Positions 3,873 to 62,875 of a stretch of 64,000 nt of DNA are shown one piece after another (positions within the stretch are counted from its first letter, which is position 1; every line of letters starts with the position of its first letter). Position numbers and translations under genes: made by a program. Location of the stretch: the NCBI GenBank assembly GCA_040767925.1, contig JAXGNN010000001.1:1344921-1408920 (forward strand), in the 5' to 3' direction. The stretch is from Christensenellales bacterium (GTDB taxonomy: Bacteria; Bacillota; Clostridia; Christensenellales; CAG-138). The notes below the pieces were generated by a model that searched no databases, had not been told where the DNA came from, and worked only from the letters and a program-made list of their open reading frames with translations.

Positions 3873-3894
3873 CTGTGCCGGACGGATAAGAACA

Positions 3895-3977
3895 GGGCGG
3901 ATATGGAATCCGCCCCTGCAAAATCCCCGCCGAAGCGGCGTTCTTGATTTTCAATTATCCATTGTCAATTGTCAATT
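3895..3977 (-). repeat. Modular intergenic repeat, full copy (locus 1), abutting the noc stop
   Basis: On the + strand: GGGCGGAT-ATGGA-ATCCGCCC, CTGCAAAATCCC, CGCCG-AAG-CGGCG, TTCTTGATTTTCAATTATCCATTGTCAATTGTCAATT. The last heptamer overlaps the TAA of noc (3976-3978). Confidence 0.9.
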
Positions 3978-4815
3978 ACTTATGTCTCGTCACCCGGATG
4001 CTGATGTCCACGCCGTCCTCGCGGTCGGCCTGCTCGACCTCGACCACCATGCCGGATTCGCGCAGCGCCTTCACCGCGTCGTTGATGGTGTTCATGAAGA
4101 TGCGGTAGTCCCGCACGAGGCGGATGATCATGGGCCGGGGCTTCGCGCCGTCGGCTTTTTCATCGTAAAGGCGGTTGAGCGTCTTTTCGACGTACTGCTC
4201 GGTCTCCTTGACCGAAAGCCCCTTCTGGGCGATTTTGTCCACGAGCTCGAGGCGCGCGCGGTCGTCCGCGAGCTTCAGGAGCGCGCGGGCGTGGCGCTCC
4301 GTGAGGCGCGCGTCCACCATGGCGCTCTTCACGTCGTCCGAAAGCTTCAGAAGGCGCAGCTTGTTGGCGATGGAGGACTGGCTTTTGCCGAGCCGCTCCG
4401 CGAGCTGCTCCTGCGTGAGGTTGTAGGTTTCAAGCAGGGACGCGTAGCACTGCGCCTCCTCGAGGAAGTGCAGGTCCTCGCGCTGCAGGTTCTCGATGAG
4501 CGCCATGACCGCCGAGGTCTCGTCCATGATTTCCTGCTGGATGATGCAGCTCACCGTCTCCATCCCGAGGCTCGTCGCCGCGCGCAGGCGGCGCTCCCCC
4601 GCGACCAGCTCGTACTCGTCGCCCACCCGCCTGACGAGCAAAGGCTGCAGCAGGCCCACCTGCCGGATGGACTGCGCGAGCTCCGCGATGCTCTCCTCGT
4701 CGAAGGTTGTCCGGGGTTGATAGGGGTTCGGGCGGATCTTTGCGACGGGCAGCTCCACGAGCAGCTTGACTGCCTCGGGGCTCCTGTTTTCCTTTAAGAA
4801 GTCGAATACGGGCAT
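3976..4815 (-). CDS. noc: Nucleoid occlusion protein Noc (ParB-family paralogue)
   Basis: ParB N-terminal box LLQPLLVRRVGDEYELVAGERRLRAA, HTH QEQLAERLGKSQSSIANKLRLLKL, and a Noc-type C-terminus RDYRIFMNTINDAVKAL. Sits directly downstream of rsmG as in Bacillus. GGGAGGA RBS. Confidence 0.85.
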   Translation of the reverse strand: MPVFDFLKENRSPEAVKLLVELPVAKIRPNPYQPRTTFDEESIAELAQSIRQVGLLQPLLVRRVGDEYELVAGERRLRAATSLGMETVSCIIQQEIMDETSAVMALIENLQREDLHFLEEAQCYASLLETYNLTQEQLAERLGKSQSSIANKLRLLKLSDDVKSAMVDARLTERHARALLKLADDRARLELVDKIAQKGLSVKETEQYVEKTLNRLYDEKADGAKPRPMIIRLVRDYRIFMNTINDAVKALRESGMVVEVEQADREDGVDISIRVTRHK

Positions 4816-4923: not shown

Positions 4924-5610
4924 TCACAGGGGATTTTTCGCGGCGGCTCCCGCCTTTCGCGGATATTCCTTCGGCGTGGGCGCAAGCTTTTTCGCCTCGA
5001 TCACATGGCGCTCGCCCCACGGAACTTCAAATTTGAGCGTCTGCGCCTCGAGGCGCAGAATCTTCGCGGCGCGCGCGGCCGACGCGAGTTCCTCGTCCGC
5101 CTTCGGCCCTTTGTACATGAGGGAAACGCCGCCTGTTTTCAGGAGGGGCGCCGTCCACTCCATCAGGGCGGACGCTCCCGCGACCGCGCGCGTGAGGGCA
5201 ACGTCGTATTGCCCGCGGTGCGCGGGGTCCCGCCCCGCGTCCTCCGCCCGCGCGTGCACGAGCGCCGCCTGAAGGTTCAATTCCTCCAGCAGGGCCTTTA
5301 GGAAAACGAGGCGCTTATTGAGCGAGTCGAGCAGCGTCATCGAGAGGTCGCCCCGCATGATGAGCAGGGGCACGCCCGGGAAGCCCGCGCCCGTGCCCAC
5401 GTCGATGCAGCGCGCGCCCTCTTTGACGCGCGCCACGGGCAAAAGGCTGTCCGCGAAGTGCTTGGCGACAACTTCCTCCGCGCCCGTGATGGCGGTGAGG
5501 TTCATCCTTTCGTTCCAGGCGGCGAGCAGCGTGAAGTAGCGCGCGAATTTTCCAATTTGCGCCCCGTCCGCCTCCGGTATGTATCGATGGATCAGGCCTT
5601 CTATCTCCAT
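4924..5610 (-). CDS. rsmG: 16S rRNA (guanine527-N7)-methyltransferase RsmG/GidB
   Basis: WNERMNLTAI, KHFADSL, DVGTGAGFPGVPL motifs. Synteny mnmG-rsmG-noc. Confidence 0.93.
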   Translation of the reverse strand: MEIEGLIHRYIPEADGAQIGKFARYFTLLAAWNERMNLTAITGAEEVVAKHFADSLLPVARVKEGARCIDVGTGAGFPGVPLLIMRGDLSMTLLDSLNKRLVFLKALLEELNLQAALVHARAEDAGRDPAHRGQYDVALTRAVAGASALMEWTAPLLKTGGVSLMYKGPKADEELASAARAAKILRLEAQTLKFEVPWGERHVIEAKKLAPTPKEYPRKAGAAAKNPL

Positions 5611-5668
5611 TTCGTCAATTCCGCATTTCCTATATTGTTTTTCGGGGAAGGGACGCCGGCGGTTTCGC

Positions 5669-5689
5669 GGGCGGATATGGAATCCGCCC
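5669..5689 (-). repeat. Solo hairpin module of the repeat family (locus 2)
   Basis: GGGCGGAT-ATGGA-ATCCGCCC. Confidence 0.85.
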
Positions 5690-5841
5690 TGCTGTCCCCG
5701 ACAAGGCGGAGAGAGGCGTCCTTAAGGGTTCCGGGAACGGTCCCACCCTTTCCCCTTCCTTCATCGCCCCATGCAGCGTTCTGTACGGCGCGCCCACATC
5801 GCCCTCCTGCCCGCGGAACCGTCCCCGGGCGCGGATTCCCT

Positions 5842-5955
5842 CCCGCGGCGGCGTTCCCCGATTGTCAATTGTCAATTCTCAATTGTCAATTTCCCCTTCC
5901 CGCCCGCGGCGGCGTTCCCCGATTGTCAATTGTCAATTCTCAATTGTCATTTTCC
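5842..5955 (-). repeat. Two tandem 61-bp copies of the heptamer module (subfamily 2), overlapping the mnmG 3' end
   Basis: CCGCGGCGGCGTTCCCCGATTGTCAATTGTCAATTCTCAATTGTCA occurs twice (period 61: 5860 and 5921). Confidence 0.9.
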
Positions 5956-7819
5956 TCAAGTAAATCGTCAGCACCGCGATGTCCGAAGGCGACACGCCCG
6001 AGATGCGCCCCGCGCGGCCGAGGCTCTCGGGCTTCCTTGCCGCGAGCTTCTGGCGCGCCTCAAGGCGCAAGCCTTCCATCGCCATGTAGTCGAGGTCCGG
6101 GGGGAGGGGGGTGTCCTCCAGCTCGCGAAAGCGGCCGACGAGCGCCTTCTCCTTCTCGATGTAGCCCTCGTAGCGCGCGTCGAGCGTGACGGCCTCCGCC
6201 GCCTCGCGGCCGATGTTCGGCAGAAGATCCGGATAGAGCGCGAGGAGGTCCGTGTAGCCGACGCCGCGCCTTCGAAGCAGATCGAACAGCCTGACGCCCG
6301 AGGCGGGCGCGGACTCGCCCCGCGCCTCGAGCAGCCGCCGCAGCGCCTCCCCGGGCGCGACGGACGCGCCGAGCGCGGCCTTCGCCCGGGCGGCCTCCTC
6401 CCGCTTTCGCATCAGGCGGGAATAGCGCTCGTCGGAAACAAGCCCCGTCCGCCTGGAAAGCTCGGTCAGCCGCTCGTCCGCGTTGTCCTGCCGGAGCAGC
6501 AGCCGGTATTCCGCGCGGGAGGTCATCATCCGGTAGGGTTCGTTGGTGCCTTTGCCCGTGAGGTCGTCGCACAGCACGCCGATGTACGCGTCCGCGCGCG
6601 AGAGGAGAAGGGGCGGCTCGCCCCGAAGGTACAGGGCGGCGTTGATCCCCGCGTAAAGCCCCTGCGCCGCGGCCTCCTCATAGCCGGAGCTGCCGTTGAT
6701 CTGCCCCGCGAAGTAAAGGCCCTCTATCTCGCGGGAACGAAGCGCAGCGTCGAGCGCCGTGGGGTCGATGCAGTCGTACTCGATGGCGTAGCCGTAGCGC
6801 GTGACCTGGCAACGTTCAAGCCCTGGTATCGTATGGAGCATGTCCCTCTGCACGTCGGCGGGGAGCGAGGTGCTCATGCCCTGCACGTATTTCTCGTCGG
6901 TCGAGCGCCCTTCCGGCTCGATGAAGAGCTGGTGGCGCTCCTTGTCGGCGAAACGGGTGATCTTATCCTCGATGGAGGGGCAGTAGCGCGTGCCCGTCGC
7001 GCGGATGAGGCCGGAGTACATGGCGCTGCGCGCGATATTCGCGCGGATGACCGCGTGGGTCGCCTCGTTCGTATAGGTGAGGTAGCACGGGACCTGCTCC
7101 CGTTCAAGCTCCCCCGTGAGGAAGGAGAAGCGCGGCTGCGGCTCGTCCCCGAACTGCGGCTCCATTTTTGCATAATCGAGCGTGCGGCCGAGCACGCGCG
7201 CAGGCGTGCCCGTCTTGAAGCGGCGAAGCGCGAAGCCGATCTTTGCGAGCGCCGCGGAAAGCCCTTCCGCGCGCATCAGGCCGGAGGGCCCGCTCTCCCA
7301 TACGCAATCGCCGATGAGCACGCGGCTCTTTAAATACACGCCCGTCGCGACGACGACGGCGCGGCAGGGGATCCTCTCCCCCGCGCTCTTCATGCCGCCC
7401 GAGAGGCGTATGCCGATGACGCGGCCGTTTTCCACGTCGATATGGGCGCACTCGCCCTGCATCAGGGTCAGGCGCTCCTCGGTTTCGAGCGCGCGCTTCA
7501 TGCGCGCGTGATATTCCCGCTTGTCGATCTGCGCGCGAAGGGAGTGCACGGCGGGGCCCTTGCCCGTGTTGAGCATGCGCACCTGAAGGCAGGTGTCGTC
7601 CGCGGCGAGGCCCATCTCGCCGCCGAGCGCGTCGATTTCGCGCACGAGGTGCCCCTTCGACGTGCCGCCCACCGAGGGGTTGCACGCCATGAGGGCGACC
7701 GCGTCGAGGTTGAGCGTCAGGCACAGCGCAGTAAGCCCCATGCGCGATGCGGCAAGCGCGGCCTCAAGCCCTGCGTGCCCTGCTCCCAGTATCGCGATGT
7801 CGTATCCCGTTTCCGCCAC
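5933..7819 (-). CDS. mnmG: tRNA uridine-5-carboxymethylaminomethyl modification enzyme MnmG/GidA
   Basis: GTG start with GGAGGG RBS. FAD motif YDIAILGAGHAGLEAA; CNPSVGG, GQINGSSGYEEAAAQG. The last 5 codons (MTIEN) and the TGA lie inside the repeat. Confidence 0.95.
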   Translation of the reverse strand: MAETGYDIAILGAGHAGLEAALAASRMGLTALCLTLNLDAVALMACNPSVGGTSKGHLVREIDALGGEMGLAADDTCLQVRMLNTGKGPAVHSLRAQIDKREYHARMKRALETEERLTLMQGECAHIDVENGRVIGIRLSGGMKSAGERIPCRAVVVATGVYLKSRVLIGDCVWESGPSGLMRAEGLSAALAKIGFALRRFKTGTPARVLGRTLDYAKMEPQFGDEPQPRFSFLTGELEREQVPCYLTYTNEATHAVIRANIARSAMYSGLIRATGTRYCPSIEDKITRFADKERHQLFIEPEGRSTDEKYVQGMSTSLPADVQRDMLHTIPGLERCQVTRYGYAIEYDCIDPTALDAALRSREIEGLYFAGQINGSSGYEEAAAQGLYAGINAALYLRGEPPLLLSRADAYIGVLCDDLTGKGTNEPYRMMTSRAEYRLLLRQDNADERLTELSRRTGLVSDERYSRLMRKREEAARAKAALGASVAPGEALRRLLEARGESAPASGVRLFDLLRRRGVGYTDLLALYPDLLPNIGREAAEAVTLDARYEGYIEKEKALVGRFRELEDTPLPPDLDYMAMEGLRLEARQKLAARKPESLGRAGRISGVSPSDIAVLTIYLRKMTIEN

Positions 7820-10302: not shown

Positions 10303-10462
10303 GGGGACGGGGGTAATTGACAATTGACAATTGATAATTGACAATCGGGGAACGCCGCCGCGGGCGGGGACGGGGGTAATTGACAATTGACAATTGATAA
10401 TTGACAATCGGGAACGCCGCCGCGAGCGGGAAATTTTGTAGGGGCGGATTCCATATCCGCCC
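10303..10462 (+). repeat. Repeat locus 3: two 63-bp heptamer modules plus one hairpin module
   Basis: GGGGACGGGGGTAATTGACAATTGACAATTGATAATTGACAATCGGGGAACGCCGCCGCG twice (10314 and 10377), then TTTTGTAG-GGGCGGAT-TCCAT-ATCCGCCC (10442-10462). Confidence 0.9.
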
Positions 10463-10560
10463 GCCGTCCTTTCCCCGACGCGGGCGGGGGCAGTTCTGCT
10501 TGTTCGGGGTTCCGGATCTGTCGGCGCTTGCGGCTCCAGCGCCCCCTGCGCCCAAAATTC

Positions 10561-10586
10561 ATTGTCAATTGTCAATTATCAATTGC
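10561..10586 (-). repeat. Isolated heptamer block forming the 3' end of the MocA-like gene
   Basis: ATTGTCAATTGTCAATTATCAATTGC. This is the inverted complement of the blocks at 10314-10410. Confidence 0.85.
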
Positions 10587-11149
10587 TTCAGCTCTTCCGC
10601 GCCGTCCACGTCGGCGAGCTCGCCCGGGTCGGCGACCTGGTGAAGGGCGAGGGCGTCCTCGTGCCTTCTTATGACCTCGCTGCCGCCGCTGTCCCCCGCA
10701 AGGGCGCAGAGCTCGTCGAAGAAACGCCCGGGGAAGATCGCGGGGTTGCCGCGCCTCTGCCCGTTCCCCAGCGCGCGGATGACATGGGGATCCTTCTCAA
10801 ACGCGTCGACGAGGGCCAAGACGCTCTCCCGCGTGAGCCGCGGCTGATCCGCCACCATGAACATGGCGGCGTCTGCGCCGAGCGCCCTCGCGCGCTCAAG
10901 CCCCATGCGGATCGTACGGGAGACGCCCTCCTCCGGGCGGTCGTTCTTCACGGCGAAAAAGCCGCGCCTCTCGGCCTCCGCGAGGATCTCCCCGCTGCCG
11001 GAGACGACGATGGTCGCGCGAAGCTTCTCCGCAGGCACGGCGTCGAGCGCGCGCGCGTAGAGCGGCTTCCCCCGGTAGGGCGCGAGGAGCTTGTTCGAGC
11101 CGAAGCGCCTCCCGGCGCCCGCGGCCATCAATATGCATACGAGATTCAT
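10565..11149 (-). CDS. MobA/MocA-like molybdenum-cofactor nucleotidyltransferase (YgfJ type)
   Basis: ILMAAGAGRRFGSNKLL, VADQP, GNPAIFP motifs. ATGA overlap with the upstream hydantoinase stop. The last 6 codons (QLIIDN) and the TGA are repeat sequence. Confidence 0.75.
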   Translation of the reverse strand: MNLVCILMAAGAGRRFGSNKLLAPYRGKPLYARALDAVPAEKLRATIVVSGSGEILAEAERRGFFAVKNDRPEEGVSRTIRMGLERARALGADAAMFMVADQPRLTRESVLALVDAFEKDPHVIRALGNGQRRGNPAIFPGRFFDELCALAGDSGGSEVIRRHEDALALHQVADPGELADVDGAEELKQLIIDN

Positions 11150-18782: not shown

Positions 18783-19122
18783 ACAATTGACAATTGACAA
18801 TGGATAATTGACAATCAGAAACGCCGCTTTGCGGGGATTTTGCAGGGGCGGATTCCATATCCGCCCCGTTCAACAATTGACAATGGATAATTGACAATCA
18901 GGAACGCCGCTTCGGCGGGGATTTTGCAGGGGCGGATTCCATATCCGCCCCGTTCAACAATTGACAATGGATAATTGACAATCAGGAACGCCGCTTCGGC
19001 GGGGATTCTGTAGGGGCGGATTCCATATCCGCCCTGTTCAACAATTGACAATGGATAATTGACAATCAGGAACGCCGCTTCGGCCGGGATTTTACAGGGG
19101 CGGATTCCATATCCGCCTTGTT
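18781..19122 (+). repeat. Four head-to-tail full copies of the modular repeat (90+84+84+84 bp)
   Basis: Unit: AACAATTGACAATGGATAATTGACAATCAGGAACGCCGCTTCGGCGGGGATTTTGCAGGGGCGGATTCCATATCCGCCCCGTTC. Copies at 18781-18870, 18871-18954, 18955-19038, 19039-19122. The array starts on the TAA of the ABC ATPase gene. Confidence 0.95.
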
Positions 19123-24947: not shown

Positions 24948-24980
24948 GACGCCTTACAAATGAGATTATTGCATAAAATA

Positions 24981-25069
24981 AAGGCGGATATGGAATCCGC
25001 CCTTGTAATACCCCCGCCGCAGCGGCGTTCTTTTTATTGTCAATTGTCAATTGTCAATTGTTAATTAAT
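24981..25069 (-). repeat. Modular repeat, full copy (locus 5), abutting the upp stop
   Basis: GGCGGAT-ATGGA-ATCCGCC .. CGCCG-CAG-CGGCG .. ATTGTCAATTGTCAATTGTCAATTGTTAATT. The upp TAA is at 25070-25072. Confidence 0.9.
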
Positions 25070-27227: not shown

Positions 27228-27269
27228 TTTTCCTCTTTCTTTTCGCCGAAAGGACGGTTCTGCCGAAAG

Positions 27270-27357
27270 GCGGGCGGATATGGAATCCGCCCCTACAAAA
27301 ACCCCGCCGCAGCGGCGTCTCTTTATTGTCAATTGTCAATTATCAATTGTCAATTGC
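27270..27357 (-). repeat. Modular repeat, full copy (locus 6), abutting the prfA stop
   Basis: GGGCGGAT-ATGGA-ATCCGCCC CTACAAAAACCC CGCCG-CAG-CGGCG .. ATTGTCAATTGTCAATTATCAATTGTCAATTGC. The prfA TGA is at 27358-27360. Confidence 0.9.
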
Positions 27358-40108: not shown

Positions 40109-40738
40109 TTGAGGACCATACTGTGCTACGGCGACTCGCTCACCTGGGGCTATACCCCCGTTTCGGGCGCGCGCTATCCGAGGGACGTCCGCTGGACGGG
40201 CGTGCTCGCGCGCGAGCTTGGGGCCTGCTATGAGATCATCGAGGAAGGACTCAACGGCCGCACCACCGCCTTCGACGTTTTCTATAACCCCAACCTCAAC
40301 GGCGCGGCGCATCTGGAGACGGAGCTTCTGACGCACGCGCCGCTCGACCTCGTGATCCTCATGCTCGGCACCAACGACCTCGTGCTCAGGCGTACCGCGT
40401 GGGAGGCTTCGCGCGGCGCGTCACGGCTCGTTTCCATCGTCCGGGGGAACCCCGGCTGCTTTTTGGATGGGGAGCCGCGCGCGCTGCTCGTCGCCCCGCC
40501 GCACATCGGCGAGAACATCGCCCGGGTGGACATGTCCCCCCTCGCCGAAACCGGCTGTGAGGAGGCGAAGAAGTTCGCCCCTCTGTACCTGCTCGTCGCC
40601 CGGAAGAACGACTGCCATTTCCTCGACGCGGGCGCCATCGCGGAGCCCGGCAAGCTCGACGCGGTACATTTCGATGAAGCCGGCCACCGCCTTTTCGGCG
40701 AGGCCGTTGCAAAAAAAGTGAGGAGCATATTCAAATGA
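40109..40738 (+). CDS. SGNH/GDSL hydrolase (arylesterase-like)
   Basis: TTG start with GGAGGA RBS. Block I ILCYGDSLTWG, block V DAVHFDEAGH. Confidence 0.85.
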   Translation: MRTILCYGDSLTWGYTPVSGARYPRDVRWTGVLARELGACYEIIEEGLNGRTTAFDVFYNPNLNGAAHLETELLTHAPLDLVILMLGTNDLVLRRTAWEASRGASRLVSIVRGNPGCFLDGEPRALLVAPPHIGENIARVDMSPLAETGCEEAKKFAPLYLLVARKNDCHFLDAGAIAEPGKLDAVHFDEAGHRLFGEAVAKKVRSIFK

Positions 40739-42150
40739 ACTACGACATTGCCGCGCTCGACGCGGCGCTCGAGGCCCGCATCCTGAAAAAGAAGCTCCCC
40801 GGCGTTTCAGTTTCGATCCGCGGGCGGGAAGGCGTCATCTTCGAGAAGGGCTACGGCTTCGCGGACGTCGAGGCCGGCCGCGCCATCAACGAGCACACCG
40901 TGATGGGCATCGCCTCCATGAGCAAGTCCATGGTGACGCTTTGCCTCGCCATCCTCGGGGCGGAGGGGAAATTCAGCTTCGACGACCCCGTCGTGAAGTA
41001 TTTCCCCAAATTCCGCGTGCCCGGCAACCCCGCGGAGGACGTCACCTGCCGCCACCTCGCGATGCACACCTCGGGCATACCGCCCATGGAGCCGCTCGAG
41101 TGGTCCATCGTGATGAACACGCCCCCGGGGCGCGAGAGCGAATGGCGCAACGAGCTCATGCGCAGCGCCCCCAACAAAATGGAAACCATCGACGAGATCG
41201 TCGACTACATCGCCGAGGGGCGGCACAAGACGCTCGGCCAGGCGGGCGAGTACATGAGCTACTCGAACGAGGGCTACGCCATCCTTTCCTACATCGTCGA
41301 CATGGCCTCGGGCACGACGCTCGAGGAGTTTTTGAAAGAGCGCGTGTTCGGCCCCCTCGGCATGACGCGCAGCGTGCTCGACGTGGACGCCTCCGAAGCG
41401 AAGAGGATCGCTTCCGACGGCAACATCACGCGCCTCTACGGCGCGGACGAGAAGGGCAACCTCACCGTGGACGACATCTGGTCCGTGCTGCCCCCGTTCC
41501 GCGGCTGCGGCTGCGTCAAGAGCACGGCGCACGACATGGCGCGCTATTACCAGTGCCTTTCGGACGGCGGCAGGATCGACGGCAGGCAGGCCATCCCCGA
41601 AACGGCGGTGGAGCTTCTGATTGGCGCGGGCTTCCCCGAGCAGGAGAAGGCGTTCTACTGCTGCGGCCTCAACAAGCGCGTGAAGCACGGCCACGTGTTC
41701 TGCGAGCACGCGGGCGGGCTGCACGGCGTCTCCACCTTCGGCGGGCTTATAAAGGGCGAGGGCTTCGGCGTGAGCGCTTTGTGCAACAAGGGCGACGAGG
41801 ATACGGACGACCTCGCGTGGATGATGTACAACATGCTCATCGGGAGGCCGCTCGGGGAGGACCACCGCTGGCTCTATCCCGCGGGCCGCGATTTCTCCGA
41901 GCCGGAGATGATCCTCGGCAGCTATATCTGCTACGAGGGGCAGCCCGTCGTGGTCGAGGTCTATCTCCGGGACGGCAAGCTCAAGGCGCATAACCCCTAC
42001 GGCGAGGGCGACATGGTCTATTGCGGCGGCACGTGGTTCACCATCTACCGGGAGGGCAAATACGCCGGCCGTGTGCGCTTCCTCATCCGCGACGGCAAGG
42101 CGTGGGGCGCCATGTTCTATACGCGGATTTACGAAAGGCTGGAGAATTGA
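40735..42150 (+). CDS. Serine hydrolase of the beta-lactamase/PBP4-related family
   Basis: SxxK motif IASMSKSM. ATGA overlap with the SGNH gene. Confidence 0.8.
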   Translation: MNYDIAALDAALEARILKKKLPGVSVSIRGREGVIFEKGYGFADVEAGRAINEHTVMGIASMSKSMVTLCLAILGAEGKFSFDDPVVKYFPKFRVPGNPAEDVTCRHLAMHTSGIPPMEPLEWSIVMNTPPGRESEWRNELMRSAPNKMETIDEIVDYIAEGRHKTLGQAGEYMSYSNEGYAILSYIVDMASGTTLEEFLKERVFGPLGMTRSVLDVDASEAKRIASDGNITRLYGADEKGNLTVDDIWSVLPPFRGCGCVKSTAHDMARYYQCLSDGGRIDGRQAIPETAVELLIGAGFPEQEKAFYCCGLNKRVKHGHVFCEHAGGLHGVSTFGGLIKGEGFGVSALCNKGDEDTDDLAWMMYNMLIGRPLGEDHRWLYPAGRDFSEPEMILGSYICYEGQPVVVEVYLRDGKLKAHNPYGEGDMVYCGGTWFTIYREGKYAGRVRFLIRDGKAWGAMFYTRIYERLEN

Positions 42151-42198
42151 GCCGAAGGGGCGGCTCCCGCGGCGCTTAAAACAGCGTCGCCCGTCGCC

Positions 42199-42280
42199 GG
42201 GCGGATATGGAATCCGCCCCTAAATGGACACCGACATGGGCGCGAACATCAAAACGGGGGTGGATATGGTATCCGCCCCC
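42199..42280. repeat. Two direct copies of the hairpin module only (locus 7)
   Basis: GGGCGGAT-ATGGA-ATCCGCCC (42199-42219) and GGGGGTGGAT-ATGGT-ATCCGCCCCC (42256-42280). Confidence 0.85.
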
Positions 42281-42306
42281 GCCGGTTTTATCCTGAGTTG
42301 CCTCAA

Positions 42307-43932
42307 TTATCTCAATTCCCGCTCGTAGACCACCCTGCCGTCCACCATGGTCATGACCGGGAGGATATCCCGTATTTTTTCCACGTCGCAGGTGAAGATG
42401 TCTTCGTCCAGCACGATGAGGTCGGCGCAGTGGCCGGGCCTGATGCGGCCTTTGACATTCTCCAGGAACTGCGCGTAAGCCGAGCCCTCGGTGAAAAGGT
42501 CGATCGCGAGCGGCACGTCGAGGCATTCCTCCGGGAAGAAGCCGGCCTCGGGCGCGCCCGTGGTGTCCTTGCGGGTGACGGCGCAGTAGATGCCGAGGAA
42601 CGGGTTGATCTCCTCCACAGGCCCGTCGGAGCCGAATGCCATGCCCACGCCCTTCTCGTGCATGGTTTTAAAGGGGAGGAACCAGCGGTTCATCTCCATC
42701 GGGAAGCGCGCCGCGACGGTGTAGGGGTCGGTGTTCAGGAAGATCGGCTGCACGTGGGTGATGACGCCCAGTTGCGCCGTGCGCTCGATGAGGGGCACGT
42801 CGAGGCACTGGTAATGGACGACGGCGTGGCGCAGGCGGTTTTCGCCGTCCGTCAAAACTTTTTCATAGGAATCGAGCACCATTTCGATGGCGCGGTCGCC
42901 CAGCGCGTGCGTGATGACCTGCATGCCGTTCCCGACGGCCAAGCCGACCATGGAGTCGATCAGCTCGTTGCTCATCGTCTCGGTGCCATAGTTGCCGGGA
43001 TCGTCGAGATAGCCCCCGCGCACCACGGCCGTGCGGCCGCCGAGAGAGCCGTCCTTGAAAAGCTTCAAGGGGCCGCGCGTGAGCATGCCGCCGTATTTGC
43101 CGGTTTTGTGCTCGCCCTTAAGATACGCCCTGAATTCGTCGGGGCTGTGGAAGCAGAGCTGGTGCTCGTAGCGAACGGGGGCCTTTCCCTCGTCGTAGAT
43201 CTCGTGCATGAGGCGGAAGAACTCCGCGTCCTCCATATAGGGGTTCATGCCGATGTCGTTGGACTGCACGGAGGTCAGGCCGTGCGAGACGGCGAACTCC
43301 ATCGCCCGGAGGATCCACGCCTTGAATTCCTCGCGCTCGGGCGGCTTCACCGCGCCCTGGATCGGATAGATGGCGCCTTCCGCGAAATAGCCGCTGGGGA
43401 AGCCGTCCTCCTCGATCCCGAAAAAGCCGTCCTTGTACTGGGGGGCGCCCGGGCCGAGGCCGACGGCCTCGATAACTTTGGTGTTGGCGGCGGCGACGTG
43501 GACGCAGGCCCGGATCAGGACCACCGGGATTTCCGTGGAAATGCGGTCGACGTCGTGCCGGTTGGGGTAACGCTTCTCCCCCGGGGGAAAGAGGTCCTGG
43601 TTCCAGCCGGAGGCGATCATGCCGTTTTTGACCGCGGCGGGATGCTCTTCGATGAACCTGCGGCAGCGCGCCACGATTTCGTCGATGGAACGGCAGCCGC
43701 GAAGGTCCGCCTGGTTGAGGCGCTGTGCCACCATCGAGAGGTGCAGGTGGGAATCGTTCAGGCCGGGGATCACGGTCCTGCCTCCGCAGTCGTAAACGTC
43801 GCATCCGCCCGCGCGCGCGAGAATCTCCTCGTCGGAACCCACGCTTTTGATGACGCCGTCCTCGATCAGCATCGCCTCGGCGAACCGGTCGCGGCCGAGA
43901 TAGACCTTCCCGTTGATGATTGCCCTCTTCAT
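42307..43932 (-). CDS. Amidohydrolase (Amidohydro_3 / YtcJ-like)
   Basis: PGLNDSHLHL, long lid insertion, HALGDRA, HVQPIF. Confidence 0.8.
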   Translation of the reverse strand: MKRAIINGKVYLGRDRFAEAMLIEDGVIKSVGSDEEILARAGGCDVYDCGGRTVIPGLNDSHLHLSMVAQRLNQADLRGCRSIDEIVARCRRFIEEHPAAVKNGMIASGWNQDLFPPGEKRYPNRHDVDRISTEIPVVLIRACVHVAAANTKVIEAVGLGPGAPQYKDGFFGIEEDGFPSGYFAEGAIYPIQGAVKPPEREEFKAWILRAMEFAVSHGLTSVQSNDIGMNPYMEDAEFFRLMHEIYDEGKAPVRYEHQLCFHSPDEFRAYLKGEHKTGKYGGMLTRGPLKLFKDGSLGGRTAVVRGGYLDDPGNYGTETMSNELIDSMVGLAVGNGMQVITHALGDRAIEMVLDSYEKVLTDGENRLRHAVVHYQCLDVPLIERTAQLGVITHVQPIFLNTDPYTVAARFPMEMNRWFLPFKTMHEKGVGMAFGSDGPVEEINPFLGIYCAVTRKDTTGAPEAGFFPEECLDVPLAIDLFTEGSAYAQFLENVKGRIRPGHCADLIVLDEDIFTCDVEKIRDILPVMTMVDGRVVYERELR

Positions 43933-49118: not shown

Positions 49119-50789
49119 ATGCCCATTCGCGCATTCGACGAGATCCGGTCCATTACCGAAAAGCTGGTGGCCATCCCCAGCGTCGTCCGGGAGCCGGGCG
49201 GAGAGACCAAATGCGCCGAGGCCATCGCCGGCTACTATCGGCAATTGCCGTATTTTCAGCGGCACCCCGAGCGGGTGCGCGTTTTCAAGACCCACGAGGA
49301 GGCGTTCCTTCGCCACTCGACCTACGCCTACGTCAAGGGGACCGGCGCGCCTTCGGCTTCCGCGCGGACGGTGATTCTGATCGGCCACATCGACACGGTG
49401 GGCGTCGAGGATTACGGCAAGGACCCGACCCTCGCCTTCGATCCCGCGCGCATCCCGGAAGTCCTCCGGCGGATGCGGGTTTCCCCGGAGGTCCTTTCCG
49501 ACATCGAGAGCGGGGAATACCTGTTCGGCCGGGGCGTGCTCGACATGAAGTCCGGCGTCGCGGTGCACATGTACCTGATCAAATACTTTTCCGAGCACCC
49601 GGAGGAACTCTGCGGCAACCTGATCGCCGTCGCCGCGTGCGACGAGGAGGAGGGCTCCGCGGGCATCATCTCCGCGCTGGACGAATTGAACGAGCTTCGC
49701 CTGCGCGAGGGCTTCGAGTATGTGGCCTGCGTCAACGCCGACTATACGACCGGCTATTATCCCGGCGACCCGGGGCGCTATGTGTATTTGGGGAGCGTGG
49801 GAAAGCAGCTTCCCGCGGCCTACGTGCTGGGCAAGGAGACGCACGTGGGCCAGCCCTTCGGCGGGTTCGACCCCAACCTGCTCACGGCGGAAATCACGCT
49901 CCGCACCTCCCTCAACGCCGAACTCTGCGACAGCGCGCACGGCGAAACGAGCGTACCCCCCGTTTCCCTCAAGCAGGCCGACTTCAAGGACGAATACACG
50001 GTGCAAACGCCGCTCAACGCCTACGCCTACTATAACGTCTTCAGCTATGTTTCCTCCCCCGTGCAGGTCATGGAGCGCTTCCTGCGGATCGTGGAGGAGG
50101 CCTTCGACGCGACGATCGGGCGCATGAACGCGCAGTACCAGAGCTACTGCGACAAGGTGGGCATCCCCTTCGCCCCGCTGCCCTGGAAGCGCAGGGTCTA
50201 TACATGGGAGCGCCTTTGCCGCGAGCTTGCGGCGGAGCACCCGGGGTTCGAAGAACATATCGCCGGCTTCGCCGCCGAACTCAACCGGCGCAACCCGAAG
50301 ATGGACCTTCGCCTGTTCAGCGTGCGGGTCATCGAGGAGGCGTGGGGCTTCATGGCCGACAAGAGCCCCGCCGCGGTGCTGTTCTTCGGCTCGAGCTTCT
50401 GCTCGAGGGTCGAGGTTTCCGGCAGGAACGCGCGCGAGCGGGAGCTGATGGAGGCGCTGCGCCTTGCGGTGGACGAGGTTTCTCCCGCGTGCCCCGATCC
50501 CATCCAGATCAAGATGTTCTATCCGTATATCGCCGACGCGAGTTTCCTCGCCCTCAGCGACAGCCCGGAGGACATTTCCGCCATGCTGCGCAACATGCCC
50601 GCGCACGGCACGAAATACCGTTTCCCCATGGAAAAAATCCTGGCGATCAACGTACCTACGGTCAACATCGGCGCGCAGGGCTGGGACGGGCACCAGGTAG
50701 CCGAGCGGGTGCACATGCGCTACACCTTCGAGACCGTGCCCGAACTCTCTTACCGCGTGATCCGCCGCCTGCTCTCCCCAAGGGATTAG
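49119..50789 (+). CDS. M20/M25/M40-family metallohydrolase, RocB-like
   Basis: LIGHIDTVG, GRGVLDMKSG, ACDEEEGSAG. ~550 aa, like RocB. Confidence 0.75.
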   Translation: MPIRAFDEIRSITEKLVAIPSVVREPGGETKCAEAIAGYYRQLPYFQRHPERVRVFKTHEEAFLRHSTYAYVKGTGAPSASARTVILIGHIDTVGVEDYGKDPTLAFDPARIPEVLRRMRVSPEVLSDIESGEYLFGRGVLDMKSGVAVHMYLIKYFSEHPEELCGNLIAVAACDEEEGSAGIISALDELNELRLREGFEYVACVNADYTTGYYPGDPGRYVYLGSVGKQLPAAYVLGKETHVGQPFGGFDPNLLTAEITLRTSLNAELCDSAHGETSVPPVSLKQADFKDEYTVQTPLNAYAYYNVFSYVSSPVQVMERFLRIVEEAFDATIGRMNAQYQSYCDKVGIPFAPLPWKRRVYTWERLCRELAAEHPGFEEHIAGFAAELNRRNPKMDLRLFSVRVIEEAWGFMADKSPAAVLFFGSSFCSRVEVSGRNARERELMEALRLAVDEVSPACPDPIQIKMFYPYIADASFLALSDSPEDISAMLRNMPAHGTKYRFPMEKILAINVPTVNIGAQGWDGHQVAERVHMRYTFETVPELSYRVIRRLLSPRD

Positions 50790-50853
50790 GGGACGGGATT
50801 CGTTTGCTTGCGGGGCAGCGGGGACGGTCCTGCCCTTCTCCCTGTGGGCAGCC

Positions 50854-50874
50854 GGGCGGATATGGAATCCGCCC
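50854..50874. repeat. Solo hairpin module (locus 8)
   Basis: GGGCGGAT-ATGGA-ATCCGCCC followed by CTAC. Confidence 0.85.
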
Positions 50875-50907
50875 CTACATAGGGCGCAATATCCCCGTCA
50901 CATGAAA

Positions 50908-50940
50908 ACGGCCTCCGCTTGAAGCGTCGGCCGTTTGTTT
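50908..50940. terminator. Imperfect hairpin between convergent genes
   Basis: AACGGCC..GGCCGTT outer stem with an A-run before and TTGTTT after. Confidence 0.4.
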
Positions 50941-50967
50941 CTTCGCATGATTCGGATTGTCGATCGC

Positions 50968-54041: not shown

Positions 54042-54061
54042 AAGGGCGAACGGAATACCGC

Positions 54062-54144
54062 CCGCTGGGGGAGCCGACGCGCATGCGTTCGTGCTGAGAG
54101 ATACCCTTGGAACCTGTCCGGGTAATGCCGACGAAGGGAAGCGG
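54062..54144 (+). promoter_or_regulatory. TPP (THI-box) riboswitch aptamer
   Basis: CCGCT-GGGGAGC..GCTGAGAGATACCCTTGGAACCTGTCCGGGTAATGCCGACGAAGGGA-AGCGG. Matches the conserved CUGAGA, ACCUGAUCYGGRUAAUGCC and GGGA blocks, with a P1 closing helix. Confidence 0.88.
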
Positions 54145-54182
54145 AGGACAAATACATCAAACCGCCTTCGGCGTTTGACTGT

Positions 54183-54226: not shown

Positions 54227-54892
54227 ATGAAATTCGTGCTGTTTGAAAAGCTCGCGGAGCTTTCGGGCAAAGAATGGGCGATGCTCATCGCGGCGCTCGT
54301 GATAGCCGCCGCGCTCATCGCCCTTTTGGCGCGGCTCAACAAGCGCCGCAAGGCAGAGGCCGCCGCGAAACCCGGCATCCCCACGCGCGTGCTCGTGCAG
54401 GGCGCGCTCTGCCTTTCCATGGCGTTCGCCTTAAGCTACGTCAAGCTCTTCTCGATGCCGCTCGGCGGCTCTGTGACGCTCTGCTCCATGCTGCCCATCG
54501 TGGTCTTCGGCTATCTGTACGGCCCGGCCTACGGCTTCTCCGTGGCGTTCGCGTACAGCATCCTCCAGATCGTGCAGGGCGCGTGGATCGTCCACCCCGT
54601 GCAGTTCGCGCTCGACTATTTCATCGCCTTCACGGCGCTGGGCCTCGGCTCCCTCTTCCCGAGAAGCTTGCCCTTGGGCATGGCGGTTTCCGGCCTCGCC
54701 CGCCTTTTGTGCAGCGTCGTCTCCGGCACGGTGTTCTTCGCGGAATACGCGACGGAGGCCGGCTACGCGAGCGCGCTGTGGTATTCCGTCGTCTACAACG
54801 CCTCGACCATCGGCGTGGAAACCGCGCTGTGCGCCGTCGTCGCGGCGCTGCCGCCCGTCGCGCGCGCGATAGAGCGGATCAGGAAAGCGTAA
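54227..54892 (+). CDS. thiT: Energy-coupling-factor thiamine transporter S component ThiT
   Basis: Small polytopic membrane protein directly behind a TPP riboswitch. ThiT-like helices (LSYVKLFSMPLGGSVTL..). Extra N-terminal TM segment. Confidence 0.78.
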   Translation: MKFVLFEKLAELSGKEWAMLIAALVIAAALIALLARLNKRRKAEAAAKPGIPTRVLVQGALCLSMAFALSYVKLFSMPLGGSVTLCSMLPIVVFGYLYGPAYGFSVAFAYSILQIVQGAWIVHPVQFALDYFIAFTALGLGSLFPRSLPLGMAVSGLARLLCSVVSGTVFFAEYATEAGYASALWYSVVYNASTIGVETALCAVVAALPPVARAIERIRKA

Positions 54893-58327: not shown

Positions 58328-59206
58328 CTATTCCGCCGCCCCCTGCATCAATATTTCATACAGCCATTCGAGGTTTTCCCGCGTGTAATACTCGATGGTG
58401 ATCCTGCCGCGCTTCTCGGTGCCTTCTATGGAAACCTTGGTGCCCAATTGCTCGCGCAGTTTCTCCTGCGCGGCGAACATGTCTCCCGTCTGCTTCGGGC
58501 GCTTTTCGGGCTTCTCCTCCCGCGCGTTGGGGAAAAGCTCCGCGTTGTTGACGGACGCGGCCTTGTTCTCCACCTCGCGCACCGACCAGCCGAACTTCAC
58601 GGCGTCGGTCGCGAGCGTTTTTTGCCTGTTCTCATCCCTGACGCCCGCGATGGCGCGCGCGTGGCCGGAGGAAAGCTCCCCCTCGCGCACGAGCTTCTGC
58701 ACGTCCTCCGGCAGGTTCAAGAGGCGCAGCGCGTTGGCGATGACCGGGCGGGATTTTCCCAAGCGCTGCGAGACCTCCTCCTGCGTGAGGTCGTGCTGGA
58801 GCATCAAAAACCGGATCGCCGCCGCCTCCTCGATGGGGTTCAGGTTCTCGCGCTGGAGGTTTTCCACGAGCGCCACCTCGTGCACCTCGGCGTCGTCGAA
58901 CTCCTTAACGATGACGGGCACCTTCTGCATCCCGGCGAGCCTCGCCGCGCGGTAGCGCCGCTCGCCCGCGACGATGCTGTACCGCTCGCCGACGCGCCGG
59001 ACGATGATCGGCTGTACCATGCCGTGCCGCTCGATGCTCGAGGCGAGCTCGCGCAGCCTTTCCTCGTCGAACGTCTTTCGCGGCTGCTCCGCGTTGGTGT
59101 CGATGAGGTAAATATCCGCCTGCACGACGCCCTCGGGCGGCTCCGTCGAAAAGTCCCCCAAAAGCGCGTCCAGCCCCCGGCCGAGTCCCTTCTTGTTCAC
59201 AGCCAT
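58328..59206 (-). CDS. parB: Chromosome partitioning protein ParB/Spo0J
   Basis: GLGRGLDALL, QPRKTFDEE, VQPIIVRR..YSIVAGERRYRAA, HTH QEEVSQRLGKSRPVIANALRLLNL. TAATG overlap with parA. Confidence 0.95.
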   Translation of the reverse strand: MAVNKKGLGRGLDALLGDFSTEPPEGVVQADIYLIDTNAEQPRKTFDEERLRELASSIERHGMVQPIIVRRVGERYSIVAGERRYRAARLAGMQKVPVIVKEFDDAEVHEVALVENLQRENLNPIEEAAAIRFLMLQHDLTQEEVSQRLGKSRPVIANALRLLNLPEDVQKLVREGELSSGHARAIAGVRDENRQKTLATDAVKFGWSVREVENKAASVNNAELFPNAREEKPEKRPKQTGDMFAAQEKLREQLGTKVSIEGTEKRGRITIEYYTRENLEWLYEILMQGAAE

Positions 59207-60584: not shown

Positions 60585-60589
60585 TGCAT

Positions 60590-60605
60590 TGTTTCACATG
60601 AAACA
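60590..60605. promoter_or_regulatory. parS site 1 (one mismatch from the palindrome)
   Basis: TGTTTCACATGAAACA vs Firmicute consensus TGTTNCACGTGAAACA. Confidence 0.8.
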
Positions 60606-60626
60606 TCCGCGCCGCGCTTGAAGCGA

Positions 60627-60642
60627 TGTTTCACGTGAAACA
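60627..60642. promoter_or_regulatory. parS site 2 (perfect palindrome)
   Basis: TGTTTCACGTGAAACA. Confidence 0.9.
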
Positions 60643-60666
60643 TCCGCAATGCGCTCCGAAGAACAT

Positions 60667-60682
60667 TGTTTCACGTGAAACA
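60667..60682. promoter_or_regulatory. parS site 3 (perfect palindrome)
   Basis: TGTTTCACGTGAAACA. Confidence 0.9.
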
Positions 60683-60938: not shown

Positions 60939-61892
60939 TTATTTCGCTGCCCCGTTCTTGTCATCCCTGCCCTTCGGGGCGACGACCACGCGGCGGTTGG
61001 GCTCCTCGCCCTCGCTGTAGGTCGTAACGTACGGGTGGCTCTGGAGCGTGGCGTGCATCACGCGCCTCTCGTAGGGGTTCATCGGCTCCATCGTACGGGA
61101 GCGCCCGGTGCTCCTGACCTGCGAGGCGACCTTGCGCGCGAGGCGGACGAGGGTCTCCTCGCGCTTGTCGCGATACCCTTCCGTGTCGATGGTGACGCGC
61201 GTGTAACCCGTTTCCTTGCGCGCGCGGTTGACGTGCAGCGAGGCGAGGTACTGGATGGCGTCGAGCGTTTCCCCCCTGTGGCCGATGAGGATGCCCATGG
61301 CGGCGCTGTCGATGCGAAGCCGGATGCCCTCCTCGGAGACGTTGGCGAGCACCGTGGCGTCGATGCCCATAAGACCGAGCATGCCTTTCAGGAACTCCGC
61401 TGCCGCGTTGCCCTCCGCGGCGTCGAGCGAGTAGTCGATCTTGGGCCTTTCGGGCGCCGGGGCATAGTCCTCCCTGCGGCGCGGCCTCTCGGCCTCGTGG
61501 CGGTCGTCGCGCCGCCCGTCGCGGGGGGGCCTGTTCCCCTCGCGCCTCTGCGGCGGGCGCGGGCCCTGGCCCTGCGGCCTCTGGCTCTGGTCCTGCTGCG
61601 GGCGCGGCCGGTCGTCCCGGCGCGGGGGCCGCGCGGGCCGCTCGCTGCGGGGGCCGCTGCGCTCGCCCGGGCGCATGCGCTCGGCGTCGGTCAGGTATTC
61701 GGGAATCACGATCTGCTCGGGTTCGCGCTCGATGAGCCGCACGATGGCGGGCCGCGCGCCGATGCCGAGCACGCCCTTTGTTTCATGCTGCACGATATCG
61801 ATCTCAACTTCGTCGATGGAAAGATCCAACTCGTGCAGGCCGTTGAAAATGGCCTCGTCTATGGTCTTGCCTATGGCTTCGAACGTTCTCAT
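60939..61892 (-). CDS. jag: RNA-binding protein Jag/KhpB (Jag_N + KH + R3H)
   Basis: Start at ATG 61892 (ATGA overlap with the yidC stop). MRTFEAIGKTIDEAI.., Arg/Pro/Asp-rich linker, KH (IGHRGETLDAIQYL), R3H (MNPYERRVMH). Confidence 0.9.
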   Translation of the reverse strand: MRTFEAIGKTIDEAIFNGLHELDLSIDEVEIDIVQHETKGVLGIGARPAIVRLIEREPEQIVIPEYLTDAERMRPGERSGPRSERPARPPRRDDRPRPQQDQSQRPQGQGPRPPQRREGNRPPRDGRRDDRHEAERPRRREDYAPAPERPKIDYSLDAAEGNAAAEFLKGMLGLMGIDATVLANVSEEGIRLRIDSAAMGILIGHRGETLDAIQYLASLHVNRARKETGYTRVTIDTEGYRDKREETLVRLARKVASQVRSTGRSRTMEPMNPYERRVMHATLQSHPYVTTYSEGEEPNRRVVVAPKGRDDKNGAAK

Positions 61893-62875
61893 TTTTTTGT
61901 TTCCTCCTGCAGGTCGGCCGTGCGCGGATATTTCCTGTTGAGTATGACGTTGACGATCACCATCAAAACGCTGCTGAACGTCCAGTAAATAGCGAAGGCG
62001 GCGTTGTTCGAAAGGCAGAAGACGAAGGACATCACCGGGAACATGTAGTTCATCCACTTGGTGGACTTCGCCGCCTGCTCGTTGGCCCCGGTCTGCGGCT
62101 GGCTCTTCTGCATCAGCCAGGCTGAAAGGAAGTTCGAGCCGCCCGCGAACACGGACATCAGGAACCAGCCGTTATTATATCCGGCGTAAACGTCCTTATA
62201 TACCTGCATGGCGTTGTTGAACGCGGCGACGGACGCCTCGGTGTTGATGATCCTGTAGCCGACCTCCCCGCCGGCCACGCTCTTGAGCGCGATGCCGAGT
62301 TCCACCAGCTTCTCCCACACGCCGGGGTTGTTGTGCAGATAAAGGAGGTTGGAGAGGTTCGCCGTCGCGAGGAAGGTCGAACCTTCCGCCACGACGGGCA
62401 TGAGGCCGTTGTCCGGCTGCCAGATGTTGTTGATCCAGAGAAATTTGAAGGAGCGGAAAAGCCCCATGGCGTTTTCGTCGACGAGCAGGCGCAGCGTCAT
62501 CTCGTGGCCCCAATACCGGAACGCCGCGAAGAAGCAGAAGAACAGGGGCATCGTGATGAGCATGGGCAGGCAACTGCCCCACATGCTAACGCCGCGCTCC
62601 TTCATGAGCTTGTTCTGCTCGAGCTGGGCCTTTCTCGGGTCGTTGGCGTATTTCTTCTGAATTTTCTGTATCTCGGGCTGTATGCGCGCCATGTCGGCGG
62701 AGGACTTGCGCGTTTTGATGTCCGAATAAAGCGTCGCGAGCTTGAGCAGCGCCGTGCAGAGCACGATGGTCAGCACGATGCTCCCGAACCCTCCGGGCAG
62801 TATGCTGATCGTCAGGTTGTACACCCAGCGCAGCATTTCAAGAAACCAGTTTGTAAGGAAAAAATCGCCTCGCAC
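61889..62875 (-). CDS. yidC: Membrane protein insertase YidC/OxaA
   Basis: GTG start. PEIQKIQKKYANDPRKAQLEQNKLMKERGVS, CLPMLITMPLFF. Confidence 0.92.
   Translation of the reverse strand: MRGDFFLTNWFLEMLRWVYNLTISILPGGFGSIVLTIVLCTALLKLATLYSDIKTRKSSADMARIQPEIQKIQKKYANDPRKAQLEQNKLMKERGVSMWGSCLPMLITMPLFFCFFAAFRYWGHEMTLRLLVDENAMGLFRSFKFLWINNIWQPDNGLMPVVAEGSTFLATANLSNLLYLHNNPGVWEKLVELGIALKSVAGGEVGYRIINTEASVAAFNNAMQVYKDVYAGYNNGWFLMSVFAGGSNFLSAWLMQKSQPQTGANEQAAKSTKWMNYMFPVMSFVFCLSNNAAFAIYWTFSSVLMVIVNVILNRKYPRTADLQEETKK

Follow-up and report, generated by a model that had tools for sequence, protein, structure and literature searches.

Arrays of the heptamer TAACTGA, described from Beggiatoaceae, cyanobacteria and Bacteroidetes, close three reading frames in forward orientation, and in one Beggiatoaceae genome 13 sets overlap upstream stop codons (MacGregor 2015, PMC4679880). 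GTAG-tagged repetitive extragenic palindromes (GTAG-REPs) sit downstream of open reading frames (ORFs), and their termini often supply stop codons (Di Nocera 2013, PMC3733652). The main text of the latter paper contains neither 'Firmicutes' nor 'Clostridi'. We analyzed a 64,000-nt stretch of a Christensenellales genome (contig JAXGNN010000001.1, positions 1,344,921 to 1,408,920; about 64% GC), hereafter the window. It holds a repeat family built on another heptamer, AATTGAC, and arrays of this heptamer supply the last codons and the stop of mnmG and of a MobA-like gene. On balance, we favor the reading that the family is a modular, non-coding repeat resembling REPs and bacterial interspersed mosaic elements (BIMEs), that its leading array closes every frame, and that it colonized the 3′ ends of genes in an uncultured, Christensenellales-like lineage of Clostridia.

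The end of mnmG on the minus strand reads AGG AAA ATG ACA ATT GAG AAT TGA. The translated MnmG ends in ...AVLTIYLRKMTIEN and is identical to a database protein of 628 aa (P0001); GIDA Pfam domains are present. Its native part runs to about codon K623 (...IYLRK), beyond which the repeat contributes five codons (MTIEN) and the TGA. This TGA (5933-5935) is that of the third heptamer in the gene-proximal array. Tandem Repeats Finder reported a tandem repeat at 5836-5955 (period 61 nt, 2.0 copies, 96% identity), within which the heptamer, ATTGTCA on the plus strand, forms arrays at 5861-5891 and 5922-5949. The MobA-like gene ends CAA TTG ATA ATT GAC AAT TGA, that is QLIIDN and a stop, and its TGA (10565-10567) also lies inside an array. 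The C-terminal peptides so encoded are …IAVLTIYLRKMTIEN for MnmG and …AEELKQLIIDN for the MobA-like protein. An earlier note on this DNA had placed MTIEN and the stop of mnmG inside the second copy of the 61-bp tandem, and QLIIDN and the stop of a "MocA-like" gene inside an array; ORF, array and TGA coincided in both cases, and the second gene proved to be MobA-like. The tails of both proteins are chimeric, with the array acting as the predicted translational stop. The features of the mnmG locus are as follows.

5933-7819, minus strand: mnmG, a 628-codon ORF that translates to full-length MnmG.
5922-5952, minus strand: gene-proximal heptamer array AAATGAC AATTGAG AATTGAC AATTGAC AAT, whose third heptamer gives the mnmG stop.
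5897-5921, minus strand: short GC hairpin of the proximal copy, CGGGGAACGCCGCC-GCG-GGCGGGAAGGGG, without a U-tract.
5836-5896, minus strand: distal copy of the 61-bp duplication, consisting of GGAAA, four heptamers and a short hairpin.
5831-5840, plus strand: 10-mer GCGGATTCCC, possibly an inverted half-hairpin remnant, not significant alone.
5689-5830, no strand: unique spacer of about 147 nt between the arrays and the next hairpin.
5666-5692, minus strand: GCAG-tagged REP-like hairpin GGGCGGAT-TCCAT-ATCCGCCC (stem-loop 5670-5688), upstream of the rsmG start (5610).
4924-5610, minus strand: rsmG (gidB), the next operon gene after mnmG; where relatives lack the repeat, only 0-19 nt part its start from the mnmG stop.

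The REP-like stem-loop was set apart from the arrays by unrelated DNA, as the earlier note had described, and the spacer matched nothing else in the window or in any locus fetched for comparison. The truncated fragment named in that note, GCGGATTCCC, was present, and it resembles the hairpin only when read on the opposite strand. By our estimate, about one to two 10-mer matches of this kind are expected by chance in 64 kb, and only its position beside the element is suggestive; taken alone, it is weak evidence of a truncated copy. A single AATTGAC was also seen at 5613-5622, 3 nt before the rsmG start (GCGG AATTGAC GAA ATG), where it may be a chance match or an array remnant.

The window contains nine repeat loci, and the full unit was clearest in four 84-bp tandem copies at 18783-19122. 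It begins with an AATTGAC array, usually of four heptamers; the linker AATC(R)GGA then leads to a short GC hairpin, after which come G(T/C)AG and a palindrome. The short GC hairpin is ACGCCGC(C)-loop-(G)GCGGGG, with AUUUUG or UUUUUG behind it in some copies, and the palindrome is 8-9 bp, GGGGCGGAT-TCCAT-ATCCGCCCC. A U-tract (UUUU or UUUUU) followed the short hairpin in three window copies and was missing from the mnmG copy. The 14-mer ATTGTCAATTGTCA, allowing up to 2 mismatches, occurred 45 times in the window versus 0.09 expected from shuffles, and the hairpin GGCGGATTCCATATCCGCC occurred 12 times versus 0.03 expected. All 12 hairpin copies in the 64 kb were intergenic, and all except the one at 10443 were co-oriented with the upstream gene. 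The modules can be separated: only heptamers are found at 10561-10587, and the hairpins at 50855 and 42200-42277 are accompanied by degenerate heptamers alone. Duplicated units of array and short hairpin were found at the mnmG locus and at 10303-10430. Tandem copies (18783-19122 and 42200-42277) ran head-to-tail, the other copies were single, and no alternating orientation was seen. The window copies had neither terminal inverted repeats nor target-site duplications and thus did not qualify as miniature inverted-repeat transposable elements. At the gathering threshold, Rfam gave no match on the repeats. The loci other than mnmG are listed below, together with the MobA-like gene.

3891-3978, minus strand: full element after parB, whose stop TAA is formed by T-AATTGAC; the native terminator lies beyond the element.
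10303-10465, plus strand: two 63-bp modules of array and short hairpin, then a GTAG hairpin; the sole window copy antisense to its flanking genes.
10561-10587, minus strand: heptamer array without a hairpin module, from which the MobA-like gene takes (Q)LIIDN and its TGA.
10565-11149, minus strand: MobA-like nucleoside triphosphate transferase gene (PF12804, E = 2.5e-33).
18783-19122, plus strand: four tandem 84-bp full elements, starting 2 nt past the TAA of an ABC ATPase gene, with a GNAT gene on the far side.
24978-25069, minus strand: full element abutting the TAA of upp; the neighbor tuf is convergent.
27268-27357, minus strand: full element 2 nt past the TGA of prfA, with the short hairpin followed by UUUUU.
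42195-42312, minus strand: degenerate heptamers (AATTGAG ATAATTGAG) holding the TAA of an amidohydrolase gene, then two hairpins.
50850-50967, minus strand: heptamer remnant (CGACAATCC), ordinary terminator and GTAG hairpin after a DUF362 gene.

Between the MobA-like and amidohydrolase genes, the element at 10303-10465 pairs with the array at 10561-10587 as a long inverted repeat that spans the intergenic region. If transcription reads through 10303-10587, the arrays in the RNA could form a stem of about 25 bp. In the four 84-bp copies, antisense hairpin loops read AUGGA, and AAUGGAU and CAGGAA motifs occur in sense; a reading as a CsrA sponge was unsupported. Relaxed Rfam searches of these copies gave RsmV (21 bits, 100 required; antisense) and rsmX (19 bits, 56 required; plus strand), and both were rejected as chance.

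To place the arrays relative to genes, a gene map was drawn from ORF length and third-position GC content and checked with Pfam. Six of the seven window arrays that head a locus abutted a same-strand stop (seven of eight with the degenerate array). For random positions and orientations in intergenic DNA plus the last 20 nt of genes, the corresponding share was 4.4%; at this chance of 0.044 per array, the abutment has P = 5e-8 (6/7) to 3e-9 (7/8). The genes upstream of abutting arrays were parB, mnmG, the MobA-like gene, the ABC ATPase gene, upp and prfA, with the amidohydrolase gene upstream of the degenerate array. The inverted copy at 10303-10465 was the exception to both co-orientation and abutment. 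At the ninth locus (DUF362), the heptamer remnant alone was found, likewise just past the stop.

A wider set comprised 27 arrays from the window, relatives and metagenome contigs that had a clear same-strand upstream ORF. The stop was inside the array in 20 of them, at offset -1 (TAA from T-AATTGAC) or at 3, 10 or 17 (in-array TGAs). In the other seven, a native stop lay 4-14 nt upstream of the array, and none lay farther away. A stop within the array is the rule for the family, not a peculiarity of two genes. The sample is small, and 64 kb of the source genome was covered.

These placements bear on whether the array is instead a portable sigma-70-type promoter (TTGACA-17 nt-GACAAT) for the downstream gene, for example rsmG. 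Several arrays do precede same-strand genes (rsmG, amidohydrolase, tsaC and GNAT). A consensus scan flagged every array at 9-10 of 12 matches and gave 8 promoter-like sites in 8 kb versus 1.1 expected, but such a match follows automatically from the heptamer sequence. Transcription would start just ahead of the hairpins, some of which are terminator-like. Moreover, the neighboring gene is convergent at three of the eight window copies (upp/tuf; 42307 and 40735-42150; 50968 and 49119-50789), where a promoter would yield antisense RNA only. The convergent neighbors argue against either promoter activity or translational coupling as a general explanation, and we regard a promoter role as very improbable.

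Read in sense, an array presents a TGA every 7 nt, so that all three frames are closed, and three heptamers suffice for this within about 20 nt. Closure of the three frames held for all 12 window arrays and, when every array is counted, for 23 of 33. From the in-array stops to the first hairpin there are about 9-38 nt. Read in antisense, the array is stop-free and translates as ...PIVNYQLSIVNYP... Conservation across 111 heptamers, drawn from the window and from relatives, was 91-99% at positions 1-6 (AATTGA) and just 74% at position 7. We had considered the palindrome CAATTG, an MfeI-type site, as the conserved unit, and rejected it because its C is the variable position and AATTGA is what is conserved.

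A conserved core of this kind would also be expected if the array chiefly binds an oligomeric RNA- or single-stranded-DNA-binding protein, with one subunit per 7 nt, that regulates the hairpin, the terminator or mRNA decay; the stops would then be a by-product. Such binding has analogues in the UAG-N4 triplets of the HutP type and in TRAP. For TAACTGA arrays a regulatory role has been proposed, and heptamer binding by CspB has been discussed (PMC4679880). In agreement with protein binding, the copy number of the arrays was narrow (range 3-5, with 3-4 commonest), the sequence was conserved across genomes of 31-65% GC, a hairpin was constantly adjacent, and co-orientation held even past a native stop. 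However, binding does not require that a stop abut the array within 14 nt, and the arrays serve genes that are unrelated to one another, both housekeeping and phage structural. Where a variant heptamer has lost TGA, it has often gained TAA (AATTAAC; GGATAAT), as would fit selection on stops. No candidate protein was identified. We consider it unlikely that binding is the main role of the array.

DNA was fetched for eight syntenic loci. The database relatives of MnmG were the one identical protein and a dozen at 77-85% identity. The best GTDB representative had 67% MnmG identity, and no array was found in 1.36 Mb of loci from GTDB representatives at or below this identity. After the conserved ...VLMIYLKK, relatives ended either in heptamer-encoded tails (LTIEN, LTMDH, LTIN and RADE-TIDN) or in unrelated ones (SAGPD, AAKSAEQK, TAGR, SRG and TSATV). 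One tail, QAAEDGREGN of locus L209, seems unrelated as protein, but the DNA shows an array at its end, giving the final N. The junctions at the mnmG end, with a slash marking where the array begins, were as follows.

Window, L081 and L085: AAG AAA / TTG ACA AT..., array at the same junction (KK/LTIEN).
L088: AAA TTA ACC ATT AAC TAA, array in a decayed form of the window junction.
L087: ...CGC GCA GAC GAA / ACA ATT GAT AAT TGA, array at a second junction (KKRADE/TIDN).
L209: ...CGC GAG GGT AAT TGA CAATTGAC..., array at a third junction (...GREG/N).
L210, L211 and L212: unrelated tails QTSATV, AAKSAEQK and SAGPD, respectively, no array; rsmG overlaps or starts 5-19 nt later.

The MobA-like protein behaved in the same way. 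Its tail was QLIIDN in the window and in L087, where the gene ends QLIIDN-TAA within the array; it was QLGN in L209 and decayed in L211, and L210 ended LERLLRM with no array. For parB, the element was seen in the window only, where it separates the end of the coding sequence from the native terminator, GGATGC...GCATCC-UUUUUAUUU.

The earlier note had proposed that the element either re-terminated these proteins on insertion or was followed by loss of the native stops, with the heptamer block in both cases tolerated as coding sequence and ending translation, and had named orthologues without the repeat as the check. Those orthologues (L210, L211 and L212) do not share heptamer-type ends but close in unrelated tails, and the repeat-bearing ones close in heptamer residues; the check thus supports the note's interpretation. 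The native tails are short and variable, and this would explain why a fusion is tolerated. The converse, that the repeat was derived from the mnmG end, was rejected, since the same module and its AATC-purine-AACGCCGC hairpin follow many unrelated genes.

A second TGA-containing heptamer, (A/G)GTGAAT(A/G), was found in tandem at 2595-2627 and 4260-4290 of L081 and at 3298-3318 of L088, and in one place it replaces the AATTGAC array before the short hairpin. In L081, three GTGAATA copies end 4 nt before the rsmG start, which has no obvious Shine-Dalgarno sequence; this resembles the placement of TAACTGA arrays.

The junction also gives an indication of age. Common to the window and its sister L081 (84% MnmG identity) are AAG AAA / TTG ACA ATT GAG AAT TGA, with AATTGAG as a variant second heptamer, and the AATC-purine-AACGCCGC hairpin downstream. 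At four-fold degenerate sites of mnmG, the window differs from relatives at 32-46% of positions, and from L081 at 35%. Because the junction and the variant heptamer are common to both despite this synonymous divergence, the mnmG fusion is old and predates the split of the two. It has stayed intact since, through constraint or through homogenization with copies elsewhere. Only the window has the 61-bp duplication; L081 has a single copy at the same junction. The distal copy opens GGAAA/TTGAC, which matches part of the mnmG codons AGG AAA, indicating that the duplication arose in place. The proximal copy afterwards changed TTG to ATG (L to M).

On the star-like MnmG tree, filled and empty states were interleaved, and there were three junction types, so there must have been several gains or losses. 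This pattern, with three junctions within the last 12 mnmG codons across species, could also be produced by an element that homes to stop codons or gene ends, so that targeting and not selection after insertion sets its position; single-strand transposition by way of TTGA/TGA, of the IS200/IS605 or RAYT (REP-associated tyrosine transposase) type, is an example. IS200/IS605 elements integrate on the 3′ side of short specific targets, TTGAT for example. The narrow offsets, at most 14 nt between array and stop, and the GTAG-tagged hairpin, which is like RAYT substrates, are consistent with homing. It would call for a Y1 transposase and a conserved flanking target, however, and neither was seen (for the transposase, in window proteins and fetched loci). 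Arrays and hairpins also occur independently of each other, and the inner branches of the MnmG tree are too short for gain and loss events to be counted. Homing to gene ends therefore seems to us improbable.

The GTAG hairpin was compared between genomes. Its stem is 8-9 bp and its loop 5 nt, with 92.6% of cells paired, and two pairs were changed on both sides across genomes. The hairpins obtained from a scan seeded on [GAC][TC]AG were all GTAG or GCAG, apart from two that read ATAG. The hairpin was uniform within a genome, and between genomes the arms differed in a compensatory manner (GGGCGGAT/ATCCGCCC, GGGCCGAT/ATCGGCCC and GGGGACGAT/ATCGTCCCC). As judged from these predicted stems, REP families typically show such a pattern.

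Neither the heptamer string nor the hairpin string occurred in the searchable literature. Both were found outside the source lineage. The exact 20-mer AATTGACAATTGACAATTGA occurred in 48 IMG/VR loci of 31-65% GC. The exact 25-mer GTAGGGGCGGATTCCATATCCGCCC occurred in 24 different IMG/VR loci (L261-L284) of 38-64% GC; these 24 matches carry GTAG by construction of the query, and near-exact extra copies in the same loci carry GTAG too. The 20-mer and the 25-mer do not co-occur in those loci. The 25-mer was also present in 4-21-kb 'Bacteriophage sp.' contigs of human-faecal origin (INPHARED, MT836295 among others), and single viral contigs often carried it several times. Its identity across differing base compositions is unusual for REP-like hairpins and suggests a small element that may be actively spreading. 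Beside it, other GTAG hairpins (GTAGGGGCGAAC-ATTG-TTCGCCC) were observed.

Three array loci that were checked are real phage, with scaffold, major capsid E and tail endopeptidase genes, and in these the arrays directly follow the scaffold and capsid genes. Viral arrays ended an ORF of at least 100 codons in 28 of 91 cases, 19 of the 28 at offset -1, 3, 10 or 17. A GC hairpin and T-run followed 15 of the 91 viral arrays versus 1.9% of random positions (eight times), and 30 of the 91 had an inverted array within 150 nt. A recurrent viral cassette was [AATTGAC x4]-GTCGCC-TTC-GGCGAC-UAUUUU-...-[inverted array]. In a faecal contig of 46% GC, an ORF ends ...QLAMDN and a stop within an array. In a pattern scan of metagenomes, about 10 of 120 stretches were real and the rest were chance matches. 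The phenomenon is broader than the source lineage. Three IMG/VR loci of 42% GC (L233, L245 and L256) carry mixed arrays of more than 100 nt, with AATTGAC/AATGGAC followed by AATTCAT/AATTCAG/AATTCGT, and AATTNNN arrays thus appear to diversify within phage genomes.

The arrays might be an undescribed, horizontally spread and selected gene-end cassette of gut or anaerobic Clostridia and their phages, brought to the stop codon by targeting or by function, which clears ribosomes in all frames before the 3′ hairpins or recruits a protein that binds with a 7-nt period. We hold this to be possible, if doubtful. If it were true, the arrays would set termination and 3′-end stability of housekeeping and phage structural genes, and would not be tolerated junk.

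We return to the favored reading, a REP/BIME-like repeat that colonized gene ends. A copy landing in, or recombining into, the last codons of a gene would replace a dispensable tail with 1-6 residues of the array, ending in Asn, and a new stop. Replacement of this kind would have befallen mnmG and the MobA-like gene. Copies would persist only at gene ends, where an all-frame stop and a hairpin, sometimes with a terminator, are harmless or useful. The array would probably clear ribosomes before the 3′ hairpins, which would terminate transcription or stabilize the mRNA. The module may be retained as gene-end punctuation, as suggested by its fixed co-orientation, its tight linkage to stops and the hairpin or terminator that often lies downstream. 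With no transposase found, we infer from the distribution that the repeat is or was mobile.

Several points weigh against this reading. No transposase or RAYT domain was found in the scanned proteins of the 64-kb window, which is part of a contig of at least 1.6 Mb, and a crude HUH/Y1 motif scan of the fetched loci was empty. Nor was there a consistent insertion target, since any of T, C, A and G can precede the array. The mnmG copy, internal to an operon and lacking a U-tract, cannot act as a strong terminator. The co-orientation of the seven arrays that follow native stops is unexplained by frame-closing alone and would point to a real 3′-end function or to strand-specific targeting. A purely selfish element would be expected beyond terminators between convergent genes as well, and no array was found there. 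Finally, gene calls outside annotated loci were heuristic (ORF length and third-position GC).

These cases show how essential, conserved genes can accommodate a small repeat at the coding end, since it brings its own stop in every frame, and the resulting chimeric C-termini are real and persist across species. For annotation, endings such as ...TIEN, ...IIDN and ...MDN in this clade and its phages are repeat-derived and not conserved protein motifs. The array also marks true gene ends and their orientation in poorly annotated metagenome-assembled genomes. A function at 3′ ends would make it a natural counterpart of synthetic insulators that combine a three-frame stop with a terminator, and a tractable handle on 3′-end formation in uncultured Clostridia.

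Other features of the window were also recorded. A 37-bp tandem repeat at 60586-60682 contains three parS-like sites (TGTTTCACGTGAAACA; one ...CACATG...) and is near a second parB (58328-59206), yidC (61889-62875) and an apparent rpmH (minus strand, about 63650-63790). Based on these sites and genes, the right end of the window is probably next to oriC. A lower-GC stretch at 63582-63609, just upstream of the putative rpmH end, contains ATGCAAAT in 3.5 copies. An ordinary thiamine pyrophosphate riboswitch (54057-54156; 57 bits, above the gathering threshold) precedes a YuaJ-type thiamine transporter gene (54227-54892).

Small dispersed repeats that are tolerated at or in coding ends, altering C-termini or overlapping stops, include mycobacterial interspersed repetitive units (MIRUs), Rickettsia palindromic elements and Neisseria Correia elements. 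MIRUs couple translation by overlapping both a stop and the start that follows it, Rickettsia elements are in-frame insertions inside genes, and Correia elements carry terminal inverted repeats together with a TA duplication. To our knowledge, none of the three has a heptamer array closing every frame. In E. coli, Liang, Rudd and Deutscher reportedly found in 2015 that REPs within about 15 nt of a stop stall ribosomes. That work, reported to connect translation and the fate of the mRNA with how far a 3′ hairpin lies from the stop, offers a rationale for an unstructured spacer with stops in all frames ahead of the hairpin.

The AATTGA(N) arrays are like TAACTGA arrays in that they are tandem direct heptamers, AT-rich and TGA-containing, with few copies per set and a patchy cross-phylum distribution. 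The unit sequence differs, with 5 of 7 positions in common between AATTGAC and TAACTGA in the best register (TGAYAAY). TAACTGA arrays lie a few nt upstream of start codons, in place of the Shine-Dalgarno sequence, and regulation of translation has been proposed for them. In contrast, AATTGA(N) arrays abut stops, also where the neighbor is convergent, with GC hairpins, terminators or a REP-like palindrome behind them. Similar to GTAG-REPs and BIMEs, which are mobilized by RAYT/TnpA-REP (PMC3733652, PMC2817692, PMC8266576), the family has a GC-rich palindrome of 21-23 nt after GTAG or GCAG. It is also high-copy, extragenic and downstream of ORFs, like GTAG-REPs, and its stem covaries between genomes. 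A difference from GTAG-REPs is that the stop comes from a separate heptamer module and not from the GTAG tag, and that copies are head-to-tail or single. The multi-module make-up recalls BIMEs, but their alternating orientation with linkers is not seen here. REPs are normally species-specific, whereas an identical 25-mer occurs here in contigs of 38-64% GC, including the faecal virome. The principle is already covered by TAACTGA arrays and GTAG-REPs. The present family is a variant that departs from them in its sequence, host lineage, position at stops rather than starts, coupling of a stop array with a short hairpin and a REP-like palindrome, and presence in phages.

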